Source: Escherichia phage PE37. From it: 64,000 nucleotides of DNA. The notes below the pieces were generated by a model. It ran no database searches. It saw nothing but the letters and a program-made list of their open reading frames with translations, and was not told the DNA's origin. Made by a program: the position numbers and the translations under genes. Location: sequence record NC_054929.1. One strand, given 5' to 3'. Below are positions 3,422 through 11,049 of the stretch, one piece after another; positions within the stretch are counted from its first letter, which is position 1, and each line of letters starts with the position of its first letter.

Positions 3422-3670
3422 ATGATTAAACAATTACAACACGCTCTTGAACTGCAACGAAACGCATGGAATAATGGTCACGAAAACTATGGCGCTTCTA
3501 TTGATGTTGAAGCCGAAGCTCTTGAAATCCTGCGTTATTTCAAACATCTGAATCCTGCTCAAACTGCATTAGCTGCTGAGCTTCAGGAAAAAGATGAACT
3601 TAAGTATGCTAAGCCTCTGGCTTCTGCTGCACGAAAAGCAGTTCGTCACTTTGTGGTAACACTGAAGTAA
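3422..3670 (+). CDS. rIII: lysis-inhibition accessory protein rIII
   Basis: 82 aa; position after gene 31 as in T4. Confidence 0.8.
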   Translation: MIKQLQHALELQRNAWNNGHENYGASIDVEAEALEILRYFKHLNPAQTALAAELQEKDELKYAKPLASAARKAVRHFVVTLK

Positions 3671-3731
3671 TTTATTGGAGATTCACTGCCTTAGTGTGAG
3701 CTAAAATCGAGGAGCCATCGAACTGTCTGAT

Positions 3732-3757
3732 TAATGATTTGCGAATCATTATAGTTT
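3732..3757 (+). terminator. AT-rich hairpin after rIII (weak terminator candidate)
   Basis: 8-bp stem TAATGATT/AATCATTA with TGCG loop, then TAGTTTTAA. Confidence 0.3.
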
Positions 3758-3913
3758 TAAGACCCCGGCAGTTTTATGGTGTACCTCTTGAATGTGAATG
3801 ATGACGGGTTTATGGTTATCCTGTCGTTAAATATCCAAAACCTATGTTCCCCTTGAGGGCTTGCGCAGGCAATGCCAATAAGTCCTGCATTTTCATTTAA
3901 AAGAGAATTTATA

Positions 3914-4090
3914 ATGGCAAAACAAGCTAAAGCAAAGAAAGCAGTTGAAAAGAAAGTTGGTGATTCTAAACGCGCTGGCTACAAGCGTGGGTCGAACTCT
4001 CGTATCAATCAAACTGTTGAGAAGATCATGCGCCGAGCACGTGCGGTTCTTCGAGATGATGCTTCTCGTTTTGGTAAGCAGAAAGCATAA
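3914..4090 (+). CDS. hypothetical small basic protein (58 aa)
   Basis: ATG at 3914 has better SD spacing than the upstream ATG at 3872; Lys/Arg-rich; followed by terminator. Confidence 0.45.
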   Translation: MAKQAKAKKAVEKKVGDSKRAGYKRGSNSRINQTVEKIMRRARAVLRDDASRFGKQKA

Positions 4091-4094
4091 GTTA

Positions 4095-4124
4095 AGGACT
4101 CCTTCGGGAGTCCTTTTTTATTTT
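4095..4124 (+). terminator. intrinsic terminator
   Basis: AGGACTCC-TTCG-GGAGTCCT hairpin followed by TTTTTTATTTT. Confidence 0.75.
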
Positions 4125-4143
4125 CCAAAGATTGCATAAAGTT

Positions 4144-4186
4144 GTTTACAGTATGGTTCCTTTGTGATAGTATTATCTTACACAAA
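4144..4186 (+). promoter_or_regulatory. early promoter with stem-loop (PeSL-like)
   Basis: GTTTAC at 4144-4149, -10 TAGTAT at 4168-4173; IR TTTGTG (4161-4166) / CACAAA (4181-4186). Confidence 0.6.
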
Positions 4187-4200
4187 CAAAGGAGAATAAA

Positions 4201-4533
4201 ATGAAAACGATTAATCTGAACGCTGCAGTTAAGACTAAATGCTTCAATGGTAAATATGATGAAACTATGTGGTTCTTAATGGCAGTTGAAGGTGATATTA
4301 TTGAAGTAGAAACAACAGAAGGTATGGGAACAGATTTCACCTTTACAATTCAAGTTCATAATTTCTTTACTGGTTGGATTTATGAATTGAATACAGTAAT
4401 CGTTGGAAAAATTGAACAAAATGAATTAGGCGAATGGTATTATGTTACAGCTCGCCAACGTGCCGAACGTTTGATTGAGAAGATGAAAAAAGTTGGTAAA
4501 CTTGACATGAAGCACTGGAAAGTAGTAAAATAA
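4201..4533 (+). CDS. hypothetical protein (110 aa)
   Basis: follows early promoter cassette and GGAGAATAAA-ATG RBS. Confidence 0.55.
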   Translation: MKTINLNAAVKTKCFNGKYDETMWFLMAVEGDIIEVETTEGMGTDFTFTIQVHNFFTGWIYELNTVIVGKIEQNELGEWYYVTARQRAERLIEKMKKVGKLDMKHWKVVK

Positions 4534-4535
4534 TT

Positions 4536-4575
4536 GTTTACTTTGGTACAGGATATGATATTATATACCTGTACC
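4536..4575 (+). promoter_or_regulatory. early promoter with stem-loop (PeSL-like)
   Basis: GTTTAC at 4536-4541, TGaTATTAT -10 at 4559-4564; IR GGTACAGG (4545-4552) / CCTGTACC (4568-4575). Confidence 0.65.
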
Positions 4576-4601
4576 GCAATTAAACATCTCGGAGAATAAA
4601 A

Positions 4602-4967
4602 ATGAACTACATCAACTTTGAACGTAAATATGTTTCTAATGGTATTGCAGGTTCTATTGATACTATTTGCCTTTGGAAACATCAAAATGGATCAGTATGC
4701 GAAATTGAACAGTATATGACTCCTAACTACGTTTATATGCGATTTGAAAATGGCATCACGGTTTCAATCACAATGGAAGGTTCAAACTTCAAAATCGCTC
4801 TGGATGATGATTTTCGTCAACGCGATTTAGGGACCCATCCTTGCTGGAATGGCGCTAATCGTAAGCTTCTGGTTAAAACTTGGATTCGTCATATTTTGAG
4901 TAACAGAGCTAAACCTGAGCATCTTGAAGCAATCTTTGATGTAGTTCTCAACGAATTTGATATTTAA
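4602..4967 (+). CDS. hypothetical protein (121 aa)
   Basis: follows early promoter cassette and GGAGAATAAAA-ATG RBS. Confidence 0.55.
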   Translation: MNYINFERKYVSNGIAGSIDTICLWKHQNGSVCEIEQYMTPNYVYMRFENGITVSITMEGSNFKIALDDDFRQRDLGTHPCWNGANRKLLVKTWIRHILSNRAKPEHLEAIFDVVLNEFDI

Positions 4968-4976
4968 AAATAAATG

Positions 4977-4992
4977 AGGGGCTTCGGCCCCT
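4977..4992 (+). other. UUCG-tetraloop hairpin directly upstream of RBS (no U tract)
   Basis: AGGGGC-TTCG-GCCCCT, followed by TACTGAGGAAAATACT-ATG. Confidence 0.5.
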
Positions 4993-5008
4993 TACTGAGG
5001 AAAATACT

Positions 5009-5296
5009 ATGTTTATGACTACTTATTTTGATACCCGCAAAAATTTCTGTGAAGTTGTTTTCTCTAAGGCGCCTAAAGACCTTCCTGCTCATTTGCAACC
5101 TACCAGTGAATCGATTAAAAATTATGTTGATGTGGTTTGTCCTTTAGAATTCCGTACAGTAAATGGGCGTGATACTTTAGCTATCGCTAAACTTAATCGT
5201 GAAATTGACATTGACCCTTCAATTGCGCGTGAAATTAATATTTCTGATATTGGCGGCGGTAATGTTAAATCACACGGCTTTCAGATGAGGTTCTGA
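5009..5296 (+). CDS. hypothetical protein (95 aa)
   Basis: ATG after UUCG hairpin and GAGGAAAA RBS. Confidence 0.5.
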   Translation: MFMTTYFDTRKNFCEVVFSKAPKDLPAHLQPTSESIKNYVDVVCPLEFRTVNGRDTLAIAKLNREIDIDPSIAREINISDIGGGNVKSHGFQMRF

Positions 5297-5493
5297 TGAA
5301 ATTCTTTTTAGGTCAAACCGTTGAATTAAAGGGAGTTGGTATACCTGGATTAATTTCTAAGGTTCTACCTCCATTTAAATGGAGTGGTGTTCAAATAAAA
5401 GAGGCTTATATTGTTTCCTGGGTAGATGGAAATGAAGACCTTCGTATGGGTGATGAATTATCTCCTATTTACGGATTAAAGGAATTAGTATGA
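5296..5493 (+). CDS. hypothetical protein (65 aa)
   Basis: ATGA overlap. Confidence 0.45.
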   Translation: MKFFLGQTVELKGVGIPGLISKVLPPFKWSGVQIKEAYIVSWVDGNEDLRMGDELSPIYGLKELV

Positions 5494-5696
5494 ATATAAT
5501 TAATAAGATTTTTGGAATTCAGTACATTAAGGTCACATATAAAGTAACAGATAAAAATCCATATACTGATGAACATGAAGAACCACAAGTTAAGTCTATT
5601 ATATTAGAAAAGGACCCTAACTGGCCAGTTGAATTTCGTCTTCCTTGCTATGGTCATTGGGCTGATGTTGAAATTATAAGCATTGAAAATGCCTGA
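5490..5696 (+). CDS. hypothetical protein (68 aa)
   Basis: ATGA overlap. Confidence 0.45.
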   Translation: MNIINKIFGIQYIKVTYKVTDKNPYTDEHEEPQVKSIILEKDPNWPVEFRLPCYGHWADVEIISIENA

Positions 5697-6147
5697 GTTA
5701 GAGATTAGAAGCAATTTTAGATGGCCATCATGTGCATTAAGTAATTTCGCCCAATGGCCTTTCGTTATGGATGGCATTCAATTTGGAGGTCTCGAAGGAT
5801 TCCTCCAAGGGTGTAAGGTGAAAAATGTTGAACAACAACGTCGTATATTTGGGTTATCCGGGCTTGCCGCCCAACAAGCTGGAAGGTCTTATGCTAGAGC
5901 TCAGGACCATGGGACCCTCTTTTGGCTCGGAGTTCCATTTTCAAGATACTCTCCAGCGTGGAAAGAATTATACACAAATGCATATTTTGAAGCAGCGATT
6001 CAAAACAAGGGCTTTCGTGATGCATTACAAGCCTCGAAAGGAAAAGTTTTGAAGCACAGCATGGCTAGTGGTCTAACAAAAGATGATACAATACTAACCG
6101 AAGCTGAATTTATTGATGTGTTAAACCTATTAAGAGACTCTCTATGA
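5689..6147 (+). CDS. NADAR (YbiA-like) domain protein candidate
   Basis: Track start 5683 is TTG; ATG at 5689. N-terminal SNFAQWP...DG...E..LQ resembles the YbiA/NADAR motif as I recall it from E. coli YbiA. Confidence 0.5.
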   Translation: MPELEIRSNFRWPSCALSNFAQWPFVMDGIQFGGLEGFLQGCKVKNVEQQRRIFGLSGLAAQQAGRSYARAQDHGTLFWLGVPFSRYSPAWKELYTNAYFEAAIQNKGFRDALQASKGKVLKHSMASGLTKDDTILTEAEFIDVLNLLRDSL

Positions 6148-6986
6148 AGCCTACTATTTTAACTGATATTGATGGAGTATGTTTAAGCTGGCAATCAGGC
6201 CTTCCTTATTTTGCTCAGAAATATAATCTTCCGTTGGAACATATTTTAAAAATGATCCAAGATGAAAAATTTATTTCTCCTGGTAAACTTTTTAATTGTG
6301 ATGAAGAACTTGGCGTTAAGCTAATTGAAAAATACAATCGTTCAGATTTTATTCGTTACTTGTCTCCATATAAAGATGCCCTGTGTGTAATTAACAAATT
6401 AAAAGAAGATTATAATTTTGTAGCTGTTACAGCGCTGGGTGATTCTATTGACGCTCTGTTGAATCGTCAATTTAATTTGAATGCTCTTTTTCCTGGTGCC
6501 TTCTCAGAAGTAATGATGTGTGGTCATGATTCTTCAAAAGAAGAGTTGTTCAAAAAGGCAAAAGAGAAATATAACGTAATTTGTTATATTGACGATCTCG
6601 CTCACCACTGCGATCATGCGAGTGAAATATTAAATGTTCCAGTTTATTGGATGGCTCGAGGAGAGCGTGACAGTATTCCAAAAACTGCACAGCGAGTTTA
6701 TACATGGAATGATGTAGAGAATAAGCTTTTTCCATCGAAGGAAAATAAAGAAAGTTTTGATAGTGAAAAAGCTATAAAAGATGTAATTGAAAAGATGATT
6801 AAAAACGATTCTTTTCGTTGGAATACTACCTGGAGAACTCCTGGATTAAATCCATACCATCCATATTATACACATCCATATCATGTGCATCCATTTCATA
6901 CATGGAACTATATTAAACCTGGTGGCATAGAGTATTTGTATAATAGACCTACTAGTGGTGATAATATTTTCCAAGGAGCATTCTAA
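6144..6986 (+). CDS. HAD-superfamily hydrolase-like protein with His/Tyr/Pro-rich C-terminal segment
   Basis: N-terminal DIDGV motif (HAD motif I-like); 280 aa; ATGA overlap. Confidence 0.55.
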   Translation: MKPTILTDIDGVCLSWQSGLPYFAQKYNLPLEHILKMIQDEKFISPGKLFNCDEELGVKLIEKYNRSDFIRYLSPYKDALCVINKLKEDYNFVAVTALGDSIDALLNRQFNLNALFPGAFSEVMMCGHDSSKEELFKKAKEKYNVICYIDDLAHHCDHASEILNVPVYWMARGERDSIPKTAQRVYTWNDVENKLFPSKENKESFDSEKAIKDVIEKMIKNDSFRWNTTWRTPGLNPYHPYYTHPYHVHPFHTWNYIKPGGIEYLYNRPTSGDNIFQGAF

Positions 6987-7255
6987 TGTTTGTCGTTCAC
7001 ACTATTTATGAAAATGAAGGTAATACTACACGTGATTACGGTCACGTAAATCAATTTTTTAGATGCAATCCAGAATTTCGAGCTCAAAAAGACGAACGAA
7101 TTTTTAAAAAATGTGTAGAGCAAGGTTTCATTTACGTCAAGCACTGGATGCAAGGAAATAAAGTTAGAACAACGTACCACAGGTCTTTGACTGAGCTTAA
7201 TGATGAATTGATTTATAATAGAGCTGTAAACCAAACTCTAAAGGATGAACAATGA
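6986..7255 (+). CDS. hypothetical protein (89 aa)
   Basis: TAATG overlap. Confidence 0.5.
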   Translation: MFVVHTIYENEGNTTRDYGHVNQFFRCNPEFRAQKDERIFKKCVEQGFIYVKHWMQGNKVRTTYHRSLTELNDELIYNRAVNQTLKDEQ

Positions 7256-8718
7256 TTCTTAAAATTCTGAACGAAATAGCATCTATTGGTTCAACTAAGC
7301 AGAAGCAAGCAATTCTTGAAAAGAACAAAGATAATGAATTGCTTAAACGAGTATATCGTCTGACTTATTCTCGTGGGTTACAGTATTATATCAAGAAATG
7401 GCCTAAACCTGGTATTGCTACCCAGAGTTTTGGAATGCTGACCATTACCGATATGCTTGACTTCATTGAATTCACGTTAGCTACTCGGAAATTAACTGGC
7501 AATGCAGCAATTGAGGAATTAACTGGATATATCACCGATGGTAAAAAGGATGATGTTGAAGTTTTGCGTCGAGTTATGATGCGAGACCTTGAATGCGGTG
7601 CTTCAGTATCTATTGCAAACAAAGTTTGGCCAGGTTTAATTCCTGAACAACCTCAAATGCTGGCAAGTTCTTATGATGAAAAGGGCATTAGTAAGAATAT
7701 CAAATTTCCAGCCTTTGCACAGTTAAAAGCAGATGGAGCCCGGTGTTTTGCTGAAGTCCGAGGTGATGAATTAGATGATGTTCGTCTTTTATCACGAGCT
7801 GGTAATGAATATCTAGGATTAAACCTTCTCAAAGAAGAGTTAATCAAAATGACCGCTGAAGCTCGCCAGATTCATCCAGAAGGTGTGTTAATTGATGGCG
7901 AATTGGTAGTATACCATGAGCAAGTTGAAAAGGAGCCAGAAGGTCTAGATTTTCTTTTTGATGCTTATCCTGAAATTAGTAAAGCTAAAGAATTCGCTGA
8001 AGTAGCTGAATCACGTACTACTTCTAATGGAATAGCTAATAAATCTTTAAAGGGAACCATTTCTGAAAAAGAAGCACAATGCATGAAGTTTCAGGTCTGG
8101 GATTATGTTCCATTAGTAGAAATATACGGTCTTCCAGCATTTCGTTTGAAATATGATGTACGTTTTTCTAAACTAGAACAAATGACATCGGGATATGATA
8201 AAGTAATTTTAATTGAAAACCAGGTAGTAAATAACCTAGATGAAGCTAAGGTAATTTACAAAAAGTATATTGACCAAGGTCTTGAAGGTATTATTCTCAA
8301 AAATATCGATGGATTATGGGAAAATGCTCGTTCAAAAAATCTTTATAAATTTAAAGAAGTAATTGATGTTGATTTAAAAATTGTAGGAATTTATCCTCAC
8401 CGTAAAGACCCTACTAAAGCGGGTGGATTTATTCTTGAGTCAGAGTGTGGAAAAATTAAAGTAAATGCTGGTTCAGGCTTAAAAGATAAAGCCGGTGTAA
8501 AATCGCATGAACTTGACCGTACTCGCATTATGGAAAACCAAAATTATTATATTGGAAAAATTCTAGAGTGCGAATGCAACGGTTGGTTAAAATCTGATGG
8601 CCGCACTGATTACGTTAAATTATTTCTTCCAATTGCGATTCGTTTACGTGAAGATAAAACTAAAGCTAATACGTTCGAAGATGTATTTGGCGATTTTCAT
8701 GAGGTAACTGGTTTATGA
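7252..8718 (+). CDS. 30: ATP-dependent DNA ligase
   Basis: 488 aa; KADGAR adenylation motif; sequence matches my recollection of T4 DNA ligase. Confidence 0.95.
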   Translation: MILKILNEIASIGSTKQKQAILEKNKDNELLKRVYRLTYSRGLQYYIKKWPKPGIATQSFGMLTITDMLDFIEFTLATRKLTGNAAIEELTGYITDGKKDDVEVLRRVMMRDLECGASVSIANKVWPGLIPEQPQMLASSYDEKGISKNIKFPAFAQLKADGARCFAEVRGDELDDVRLLSRAGNEYLGLNLLKEELIKMTAEARQIHPEGVLIDGELVVYHEQVEKEPEGLDFLFDAYPEISKAKEFAEVAESRTTSNGIANKSLKGTISEKEAQCMKFQVWDYVPLVEIYGLPAFRLKYDVRFSKLEQMTSGYDKVILIENQVVNNLDEAKVIYKKYIDQGLEGIILKNIDGLWENARSKNLYKFKEVIDVDLKIVGIYPHRKDPTKAGGFILESECGKIKVNAGSGLKDKAGVKSHELDRTRIMENQNYYIGKILECECNGWLKSDGRTDYVKLFLPIAIRLREDKTKANTFEDVFGDFHEVTGL

Positions 8719-8903
8719 AAGCTTACTTAGAAACAATTGTCGTGGCTCAAAAAGAAGGTGGAGATGTTTCTACTTCTGTATCACAAATCATGATTGAATT
8801 TATAGATGCATATGCTTATAATAAATTCACAGAAACTTTTGATGCTTATGAAAAAGGTCCAAAGTTTGAAATATATCGTACTCTCTTACAAATAGATTAT
8901 TAA
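8715..8903 (+). CDS. hypothetical protein (62 aa)
   Basis: ATGA overlap with ligase; followed by terminator hairpin. Confidence 0.45.
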   Translation: MKAYLETIVVAQKEGGDVSTSVSQIMIEFIDAYAYNKFTETFDAYEKGPKFEIYRTLLQIDY

Positions 8904-8928
8904 AGGCCTTCGGGCCTTTAATTTTATA
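8903..8928 (+). terminator. intrinsic terminator
   Basis: AAGGCC-TTCG-GGCCTT hairpin followed by TAATTTTA. Confidence 0.65.
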
Positions 8929-8932
8929 AATA
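8925..8932 (+). promoter_or_regulatory. late promoter TATAAATA (alt)
   Basis: exact 8-mer 24 nt upstream of alt ATG, just after a terminator. Confidence 0.7.
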
Positions 8933-8955
8933 GAATAAACACTAGAGAGGATATG

Positions 8956-11049
8956 ATGGAACTCATTACAGAATTATTTGACGAAGATACTACTCTTCCG
9001 ATTACAAACTTAAATCCAAAGAAGAAAATACCACAAATTTTTTCAGTTCACGTTGATGATGCAATTGAACAACCAGGCTTTCGTTTATGTACCTATACAT
9101 CTGGAGGTGATACTAATCGCGATTTAAAGATGGGAGATAAAATGATGCATATTGTTCCTTTTACATTAACTGCTAAAGGTTCAATTGCTAAATTAAAAGG
9201 TCTGGGTCCAAGCCCGATTAATTATATCAATTCAGTTTTTACTGTTGCAATGCAAACAATGCGTCAATATAAAATTGATGCCTGTATGCTTCGTATTCTT
9301 AAGTCTAAAACTGCTGGCCAAGCTCGACAAATTCAAGTTATTGCTGATAGACTTATCCGTAGTCGTTCAGGTGGTAGATACGTCCTTCTTAAGGAACTCT
9401 GGGATTACGATAAAAAGTATGCATATATTCTTATACATCGCAAAAATGTATCACTAGAAGACATTCCAGGAGTTCCGGAAATTAGTACCGAGCTCTTTAC
9501 TAAAGTTGAATCGAAGGTCGGTGATGTTTATATCAATAAAGATACTGGAGCTCAAGTAACTAAAAATGAGGCAATTGCAGCATCTATTGCGCAAGAAAAT
9601 GATAAACGTTCTGACCAAGCTGTAATCGTTAAAGTTAAAATTTCACGTAGAGCAATTGCGCAAAGTCAATCATTGGAATCTTCTAGATTTGAAAGTGAAT
9701 TATTCCAGAAGTATGAATCTACCGCAGCTAATTTCAATAAACCTGCTACCGCTCCTTTAATTCCCGAAGCAGAAGAAATGAAGCTTGGAATTAATTCGTT
9801 AGCTTCTAAAACTAAGGCAGCAAAAATTATTGCTGAAGGAACTGCGAATGAACTTCACTATGACTATAAATTCTTTTCAAAAAGTGAGGTTGATGAAGTT
9901 TCAGAAAAAATTAAAGATGTAATTTTTAACGCAATCAAAAATGAACCAACTACTTCAATAAAATGTTTAGAGAAATACGCAGCAGCTGTTAATAAATTCT
10001 TTGAAGAATATAAAGATAATTGGCTTGATAAACATAATAAAACTCGTAAAGGGCAACCAGATGAAGTCTGGGGAGAAATAACTAAAAATGCATGGAATAC
10101 AGCAAAAACTAAATTCCTCAAACGAATGATTTATAGCTTTTCTGGAATTGGTGCTGGTCCAATGATTGATATTACTATTGCCCGTGATGGTTCTAAATAT
10201 ACTCCATCACAAAAGCGAGGTATTAGAGAATATTGTGGTTCAGGATATACAGACATTAATAATCTTCTTTTAGGTCGTTACAATCCAGAACGATATGATG
10301 TAATGAGTGAAAAAGAAATTGAATCTGCTATAAATAACTTAGATTCAGCTTTTGAAAATGGTGACCGTATACCAGAAGGCATTACAGTTTATCGTGCTCA
10401 AAGTATGACTGCTCCTATATATGAAGCGTTAGTTAAAAATAAAGTGTTCTATTTCAGAAATTTTGTATCTACTTCTTTAACTCCTATTATTTTTGGACGT
10501 TTTGGAATCACACATGCTGGTATTGGTCTTTTAGAACCAGAAGCTCGCAATGAATTAACAGTTGATAAAAATGAAGAAGGAATAACTATTAATCCAAACG
10601 AAATAAGAGCGTATAAAGAAAATCCTGAATACGTTAAAGTTCAAATAGGATGGGCAATTGATGGAGCTCATAAAGTTAATGTTGTATATCCAGGAAGTCT
10701 TGGAATAGCAACAGAAGCTGAAGTTATTCTACCGCGTGGATTGATGGTCAAAGTTAATAAAATAACTGATGCTTCTAATAATGACGGAACAACATCTAAT
10801 AATACAAAACTCATTCAAGCTGAAGTTATGACCACGGAAGAGCTCACCGAATCGGTAATCTATGATGGAGACCATTTAATGGAAACTGGTGAATTGGTTG
10901 CAATGACAGGTGATACTGAAATAGAAGACAGAGTTGACTTTGCATCATTTGTTTCATCAAATGTTAAACAGAAAGTCGAATCATCTCTTGGAATTATTGC
11001 GTCTTGCATAGATATTACAAACATGCCTTACAAGTTCGTTCAAGGATAA
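8956..11049 (+). CDS. alt: Alt ADP-ribosyltransferase (virion-packaged)
   Basis: N-terminus MELITELFD; R (YRAQ), STS and EAE motifs of the R-S-E ADP-ribosyltransferase fold; late promoter TATAAATA upstream. Confidence 0.9.
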   Translation: MELITELFDEDTTLPITNLNPKKKIPQIFSVHVDDAIEQPGFRLCTYTSGGDTNRDLKMGDKMMHIVPFTLTAKGSIAKLKGLGPSPINYINSVFTVAMQTMRQYKIDACMLRILKSKTAGQARQIQVIADRLIRSRSGGRYVLLKELWDYDKKYAYILIHRKNVSLEDIPGVPEISTELFTKVESKVGDVYINKDTGAQVTKNEAIAASIAQENDKRSDQAVIVKVKISRRAIAQSQSLESSRFESELFQKYESTAANFNKPATAPLIPEAEEMKLGINSLASKTKAAKIIAEGTANELHYDYKFFSKSEVDEVSEKIKDVIFNAIKNEPTTSIKCLEKYAAAVNKFFEEYKDNWLDKHNKTRKGQPDEVWGEITKNAWNTAKTKFLKRMIYSFSGIGAGPMIDITIARDGSKYTPSQKRGIREYCGSGYTDINNLLLGRYNPERYDVMSEKEIESAINNLDSAFENGDRIPEGITVYRAQSMTAPIYEALVKNKVFYFRNFVSTSLTPIIFGRFGITHAGIGLLEPEARNELTVDKNEEGITINPNEIRAYKENPEYVKVQIGWAIDGAHKVNVVYPGSLGIATEAEVILPRGLMVKVNKITDASNNDGTTSNNTKLIQAEVMTTEELTESVIYDGDHLMETGELVAMTGDTEIEDRVDFASFVSSNVKQKVESSLGIIASCIDITNMPYKFVQG

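Follow-up and report, generated by a model that had tools for sequence, protein, structure and literature searches.

AdfN (gp30.3) and its neighbour gp30.2, a HAD-fold hydrolase, in the 30.x cluster of Escherichia phage PE37

The gp30.3 proteins make up the phage subfamily of NADAR proteins, and have a histidine in the last strand where YbiA-type proteins have a glutamate and DarT-linked proteins an aspartate (PMC11543638, PMC11125620). That gp30.3 is a NADAR protein was predicted in 2012 (de Souza and Aravind, as cited in PMC11543638 and PMC11125620). In 2024, T4 gp30.3 was found to hydrolyse guanine-ADP-ribose in vitro, but not thymine-ADP-ribose (PMC11125620), and in 2025 gene 30.3 was renamed adfN (Johannesman et al., Nat Commun 2025, PMC11825919). 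According to the latter work, T4 and T2 form no plaques on DarTG1 hosts when they are without adfN, and AdfN is both necessary and sufficient for the resistance of these phages to DarTG1. Purified T4 AdfN frees DarT1-modified DNA of ADP-ribose; an E36A substitution leaves the protein inactive in vitro, and K43A weakens it. T4 AdfN makes no two-hybrid contact with DarT1, and DarTG2 is unaffected by it. Phage RB69, whose own allele is 15 residues short, is rescued by ectopic AdfN; its frameshift allele loses a C-terminal helix that is needed for full AdfN activity, and the loss of the helix correlates with DarTG1 sensitivity (all PMC11825919). AdfN is therefore already known, with its prediction (2012), biochemistry (2024) and in vivo role (2025) all published.

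The published account explains the action of AdfN in vivo only in part, because, in cells that are not infected, T4 AdfN cannot take the place of the antitoxin DarG1, and because phages T5 and Bas25 are poorly rescued by it (both PMC11825919, PMC11125620). It is inferred in PMC11825919 that AdfN(T4) may require an additional T-even protein. In T4 transposon sequencing that was published later, 30.3 has a log2 fold change of -7.25 on DarTG1 (adjusted p 0), while adfN is dispensable on hosts without DarTG1, where 27 of its 28 sites tolerate insertions.

Here we describe adfN and the gene that follows it in Escherichia phage PE37 (NC_054929.1), within a stretch of 64,000 nucleotides that we refer to as the window. 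The window belongs to a T4-like phage (Tequatrovirus). The 1.9-kb stretch around adfN is matched by 679 phage records, about 400 of them at 95-99% identity, and nearly all of the matching records are Escherichia, Shigella or Yersinia T4-like phages. On the + strand, the order of genes is 30.9 ... 30.4, 30.3, 30.2, 30.1, DNA ligase gene 30, alt.1 and alt, which is the order of the 30.x genes in T4 and corresponds to T4 coordinates 125-131 kb read on the opposite strand. The initial annotation had placed two adjacent open reading frames, at 5689-6147 and 6144-6986, in the 30.x cluster; both are present on the + strand at these coordinates, and the order from 30.4 to alt agrees with the T4 annotation. 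The genes that concern us here are as follows.

5490..5696, + strand: gene 30.4, 68 aa (ORF, phrog_2042, T4 annotation)
5689..6147, + strand: gene 30.3 = adfN, encoding a predicted phage-type NADAR ADP-ribosylglycohydrolase of 152 aa
6144..6986, + strand: gene 30.2, encoding a predicted HAD-superfamily hydrolase of 280 aa (ORF, phrog_420, E 2e-92)
6986-7255, + strand: gene 30.1
7252-8718, + strand: DNA ligase gene 30
8953-11049, + strand: alt, encoding the Alt ADP-ribosyltransferase of 698 aa

The adfN frame runs from an ATG at 5689 to a TGA at 6145-6147. Its start overlaps the stop codon of 30.4 (ATGCCTGA), and its own stop codon overlaps the start of 30.2 in the sequence ATGA at 6144-6147. 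Such stop/start overlaps are found at every junction of the cluster, including 30.4/30.3, 30.2/30.1 and 30.1/30. When positions 3500-9000 were scanned for promoters and terminators, the number of sites was no higher than in shuffled sequence. The best + strand promoter match (4502-4531; 11 of 12 positions of a sigma-70-type site) lies just upstream of 30.7, and a strong hairpin terminator on the same strand (4094-4115; a stem of 9 bp and then a T-run) is situated behind the 30.9-like ORF. These two elements probably mark the start of a transcription unit that includes adfN, and the scan weakly favours co-transcription of the region. The alt gene follows adfN at a distance of 2.8 kb and is transcribed the same way, so that a writer and an eraser of ADP-ribose share one early region.

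A 75-aa ORF (5825-6052, + strand) is situated within adfN in the +1 frame, and corresponds to the annotated T4 gene 30.3', described in the T4 annotation as "internal translation in a different reading frame". With its T4 counterpart it shares 93% identity, as compared to 98% for the main frame. The frame is open in most T-even relatives, but its conservation as a gene is doubtful because the ATG is lost in one of the loci (L007) and an internal stop is present in another (L017); we have not treated it as a gene.

The product of adfN carries the sequence ALSNFAQWPFVMDGIQFGGLEGFLQGCK, and the motif SNFAQWP...DG...E, on which the initial annotation had based a likeness to the YbiA/NADAR family, corresponds to S18-P24, D28-G29 and E36. 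The protein matches the Pfam model Phage_30_3 (PF08010) over the whole of the profile (positions 1-138 of 138) with an E-value of 5e-70 and 234.1 bits, against a cut-off of 36, and it shares 149 of 152 residues (98%) with T4 gp30.3 in a full-length alignment. The three substitutions (S2P, R74H and I125M) affect none of the catalytic residues. As a single query, the window protein gives no match to the Pfam NADAR model at E-values up to 1, chance matches alone in the PDB (E 0.7-1.1), and nothing relevant in NCBIfam. It therefore takes a family profile, or a comparison of folds, to make the link to NADAR. We collected 103 homologues of gp30.3 and aligned 55 of them for a family profile and for conservation. 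The resulting profile matches E. coli YbiA (PDB 2b3w) with an E-value of 0.0039, placing E36 and K43 opposite YbiA E48 and K55, and 22 of the 55 family members individually match Pfam NADAR (PF08719; best E 1.5e-7). Several of the homologues carry the JGI label "YbiA (DUF1768 family)". The YbiA string that the initial annotation gave for comparison, FSNFAAWPIKVDG, is correct; it represents residues 29-41 of PDB chain 2b3w, and it aligns at this site.

The fold agrees with this assignment. An AlphaFold2 model of gp30.3 (pLDDT 92.7, pTM 0.88) was used for a Foldseek search, in which the three solved NADAR structures take the top ranks, with YbiA as the best. The E-x2-F-x-Q-x2-K helix of the NADAR superfamily keeps its catalytic glutamate and lysine in gp30.3, and the following elements can be assigned.

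5794..5796, + strand: codon GAA of E36, the catalytic glutamate; invariant in 55 homologues, and aligned with YbiA E48
5815..5817, + strand: codon AAG of K43, the catalytic lysine; at least 90% conserved, and aligned with YbiA K55
6055..6057, + strand: codon CAC of H123, in the last beta-strand, which marks the phage NADAR subfamily; invariant
6100..6141, + strand: C-terminal helix, residues 138-151 (from the model and the full-length alignment to T4)

H123 is located within strand 120-123 of the model, and the C-terminal helix is intact in the window protein, whose ORF extends to residue 152. The C-terminal half had been described as shorter and less similar than would be expected for NADAR. 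This is accounted for by the histidine variant that is specific to the phage subfamily; there is no truncation of the domain. Sequence bridging, fold and catalytic residues thus support the identification of the ORF at 5689-6147 as a NADAR-superfamily protein. The motif claim is upheld by both the family profile, through YbiA, and the fold; a search of the Pfam NADAR model fails with the single sequence, and succeeds with the 22 relatives.

The second frame, 6144-6986, encodes gp30.2, which starts with MKPTILTDIDGV and is 95% identical to T4 gp30.2. It belongs to phrog_420, a family that is unannotated for function. The DIDGV motif that had been noted in this neighbour is present, and conservation scored on an alignment of 56 homologues distinguishes four HAD motifs and a C-terminal tail.

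6165..6179, + strand: HAD motif I, D8-I-D10-G-V12 (predicted nucleophile and general acid/base Asp); D8, D10 and G11 invariant
6429..6431, + strand: HAD motif II threonine, T96, where strand 91-96 ends; conservation at least 90%
6537..6539, + strand: HAD motif III lysine, K132; invariant
6591..6596, + strand: HAD motif IV, D150-D151 (predicted Mg2+ ligands), where strand 145-150 ends; conservation at least 90%
6825..6983, + strand: disordered C-terminal tail, rich in His, Pro and Tyr; pLDDT below 50 at residues 228-231 and 243-280

In the structural model, residues 1-200 have pLDDT above 90 and form a Rossmann-like core that bears a cap domain. A Foldseek search yields 100 PDB matches at E-values up to 1e-3, with a probability of 1.00 to HAD hydrolases; the best 50 of these 100 are nearly all HAD-superfamily members, and one is a designed enzyme (3u13). 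Among the matches listed, the E-value is best and the rmsd lowest for the deoxyribonucleotidases cdN and mdN, the top hit being cdN (2jao), and the TM scores of gp30.2 against deoxyribonucleotidases are 0.62-0.70 when normalised on the target. The family profile matches mouse 5'(3')-deoxyribonucleotidase (2jao) with an E-value of 0.014, over residues 4-101 only, and motif I aligns with the DMDGV of this enzyme. No Pfam or NCBIfam HAD model matches gp30.2 at E-values up to 1. Searched with the single sequence and by profile, the curated models gave sub-threshold matches only to thiamine pyrophosphokinase, which we put down to chance. In the library of papers that we searched, none mentions gp30.2, and a broader search on 30.2, T4 and HAD returned nothing relevant.

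Motifs, profile match and Foldseek results support gp30.2 as a genuine HAD-fold hydrolase that has all four catalytic motifs and finds its nearest relatives in the 5'(3')-deoxyribonucleotidases, and the suggestion that it is phosphatase- or nucleotidase-like holds for the fold and the catalytic machinery. It would be a Mg2+-dependent HAD phosphohydrolase with a helical cap. Since it has this cap, and a fold that is closest to 5'(3')-deoxyribonucleotidases, we infer that the phosphate it removes most likely comes from a nucleotide or a sugar phosphate. The tail (residues 228-280; NPYHPYYTHPYHVHPFHTWNY) differs from that of T4 by a 2-aa insertion plus additional His residues, and is variable, or missing altogether, in many homologues. 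Its last residues are GGIEYLYNRPT, and the pattern GIEYL..[RQ]PT recurs at the C-terminus of distant gp30.2 homologues whose linkers are otherwise unrelated. The tail may serve for docking or bind metal, and the GIEYL..PT peptide might tether gp30.2 to another phage or host protein. The enzyme is ordinary-looking and we found nothing that points to an unusual role, and we consider it unlikely that it is a nucleotide-directed enzyme with a new function, such as the breakdown of a host immune signal derived from a nucleotide, or keeping an unwanted dNMP out of the phage DNA.

Taken together, we are confident that gene 30.3 encodes the anti-DarTG1 glycohydrolase AdfN, and that 30.2 encodes a separate HAD phosphohydrolase that is not a partner of AdfN. 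For the window protein, both the activity as an enzyme and the effect against DarTG1 are carried over, by near-identity, from experiments on the 98%-identical T4 protein, and the published mechanism would apply to this allele because it is full length and has all of the residues known to be functional. The initial annotation had proposed the removal of ADP-ribose from guanine in DNA, reversing a DarT-type toxin, and precisely this has been demonstrated for the T4 protein (PMC11825919, PMC11125620). In a host with the DarTG1 toxin-antitoxin defence, infection releases DarT1, which uses NAD+ to attach ADP-ribose to guanines of the phage DNA and so blocks replication. AdfN, produced early in infection, would hydrolyse the N-glycosidic guanine-ADP-ribose bond through E36, K43 and H123, yielding free ADP-ribose and DNA that can again be replicated. 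It would neither bind the toxin nor act on the thymine-ADP-ribose made by DarT2.

Two other readings concern the substrate of AdfN. According to one, the protein acts mainly on soluble ADP-ribose-derived molecules and not on DNA, the candidates being immune signals, products that arise on the side during RNA repair, or the ADP-ribosylation for which the phage enzymes Alt, ModA and ModB are responsible. Iyer et al. 2022 (PMC9503650) argued for this from the gene context of phage NADARs, namely that they are expressed early, alongside the ADP-ribosyltransferases of the phage, and that genes for NAD+ salvage are found in their neighbourhoods, and the nearness of alt to adfN, as well as that of distant AdfN homologues to Nudix, Thg1 and PRPP-synthetase genes, is in keeping with it. 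However, the T4 experiments show hydrolysis of guanine-ADP-ribose on DNA and a DarTG1 phenotype that is specific and complete, and adfN tolerates insertions at almost all sites on DarTG1-free hosts (27 of 28); a mainly soluble substrate is most improbable, although a secondary one beside DNA is possible. The other reading, that gp30.3 is a YbiA-type N-glycosidase with a metabolic role on intermediates of the riboflavin pathway, can draw on an activity that has been assigned to YbiA-family members (as cited in PMC9503650 and PMC11125620) and on YbiA being the best Foldseek and sequence match of gp30.3. Yet the last-strand glutamate that defines the YbiA family is a histidine in gp30.3, the neighbourhood is without riboflavin genes, and the retention of the gene is accounted for by the DarTG1 phenotype, so that we regard this reading as barely conceivable.

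The remaining alternative concerns the pairing of the two genes. Because PMC11825919 suggests that another T-even protein is needed, we examined 30.2 as a source of the additional factor; gp30.2 and gp30.3 might be a two-enzyme module, in which the HAD enzyme either processes the released ADP-ribose or is itself the T-even factor without which AdfN would not be fully active in vivo. In addition to that suggestion, the two genes have overlapping stop and start codons (ATGA, 6144-6147), lie side by side in Tequatrovirus- and Mosigvirus-like loci, and have near-identical distributions in the phage collection by tblastn (1509 versus 1438 records, in the same host genera). The co-occurrence at the level of genomes is uninformative, however, because 30.2 and 30.3 are both near-core across Straboviridae, and the ATGA overlap is nothing special, because overlapping codons are the local norm at all junctions of the cluster. 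Nor is the adjacency general. When a gp30.2 HMM was run against 86 loci with an AdfN-family gene, about 60 of the 86 were without a 30.2 homologue within 10 kb, and in a handful of loci a homologue was found 0.7-1.2 kb from the AdfN-family gene; direct adjacency was confined to T4- and Mosigvirus-like loci. Klebsiella phage KPV15 (Jiaodavirus) has both genes, but a whole-genome scan places them 57 kb apart, with 30.2 beside the ligase gene and the adfN homologue among tRNA genes (L089 27434-32142 and 27915-28364; 77.4-82.1 kb in the record). Since adfN of KPV15 has left the 30.x cluster for a tRNA array, the gene is mobile within Straboviridae genomes. We consider the published T4 transposon sequencing on DarTG1 to be decisive: 30.2 has a log2 fold change of -0.12 (p 0.61, 71 sites), with only 30.3 and 30.4 reaching significance, and gp30.2 is therefore not required for AdfN function. 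On the transposon data, KPV15, the locus scan and the local norm of overlap, we reject a coupling of 30.2 and 30.3. A two-enzyme module is very unlikely and largely refuted, the adjacency of the genes represents synteny and not functional coupling, and a role of gp30.2 in DarTG1 counter-defence is excluded. The conserved position of 30.2 is beside the ligase gene.

The depletion of 30.4 in the same published T4 data on DarTG1 is mild (log2 fold change -1.79, adjusted p 0.014). The simplest explanation is a polar or translational-coupling effect on adfN, since the stop codon of 30.4 overlaps the adfN start; a real contribution of the 68-aa gp30.4 to DarTG1 resistance is possible.

Members of the AdfN family are also encoded on large metagenomic contigs that differ in gene content from the T4 30.x cluster (L004 9115-11294; L001 1-22 and 3819-4316). 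There, only a few kb separate them from Nudix, Thg1-like, PRPP-synthetase-like and GGDEF genes, which fits the NAD/ADP-ribose contexts described by Iyer et al. 2022 (PMC9503650). For annotation, nearly all of the approximately 1500 phage records that carry the gene still list homologues of gp30.3 as "hypothetical protein"; these can be given the name AdfN and described as a NADAR glycohydrolase for guanine-ADP-ribose that counters DarTG1. The remaining interest of the locus lies in the role of gp30.2, a HAD enzyme, conserved and dispensable, next to the ligase gene.

Compared to known systems, the window protein is virtually that of T4 (gp30.3, NP_049816), with the same position in the 30.x cluster, the same E36, K43 and H123, and an intact C-terminal helix; the three substitutions S2P, R74H and I125M are the only differences, and none is at a residue known to be functional. 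DarG1 and the NADAR antitoxins associated with DarT1 (the BC4488 subfamily, the G. lovleyi NADAR of PDB 8bat, and the E. coli C7 NADAR) differ in having an aspartate in the last strand in place of the histidine of window AdfN (PMC11543638, PMC11125620). They also carry extensions (219 aa, versus 152 aa in the window) and are encoded beside DarT1, which they detoxify in uninfected cells, whereas T4 AdfN does not (PMC11825919, PMC11125620). E. coli YbiA (2b3w) and the Phytophthora NADAR (8bau) have a glutamate in the last strand, and share no more than 18-20% identity with gp30.3; YbiA belongs to a LexA-controlled operon and gives no protection against DarT1 in vivo (PMC11125620). For gp30.2, the closest structures are the mammalian deoxyribonucleotidases cdN (2jao/2i7d) and mdN (1mh9), which share the HAD core, the helical cap after motif I and the DxDGV...(F/W).SGL pattern. 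The identity to these enzymes is only about 17%, and gp30.2 does not match the Pfam NT5C model. An invariant W16 is present in gp30.2 where cdN has a Phe (in the DGVLADF motif), and, unlike cdN and mdN, gp30.2 adds a C-terminal helix (residues 200-220) that is followed by the disordered tail (about 228-280).
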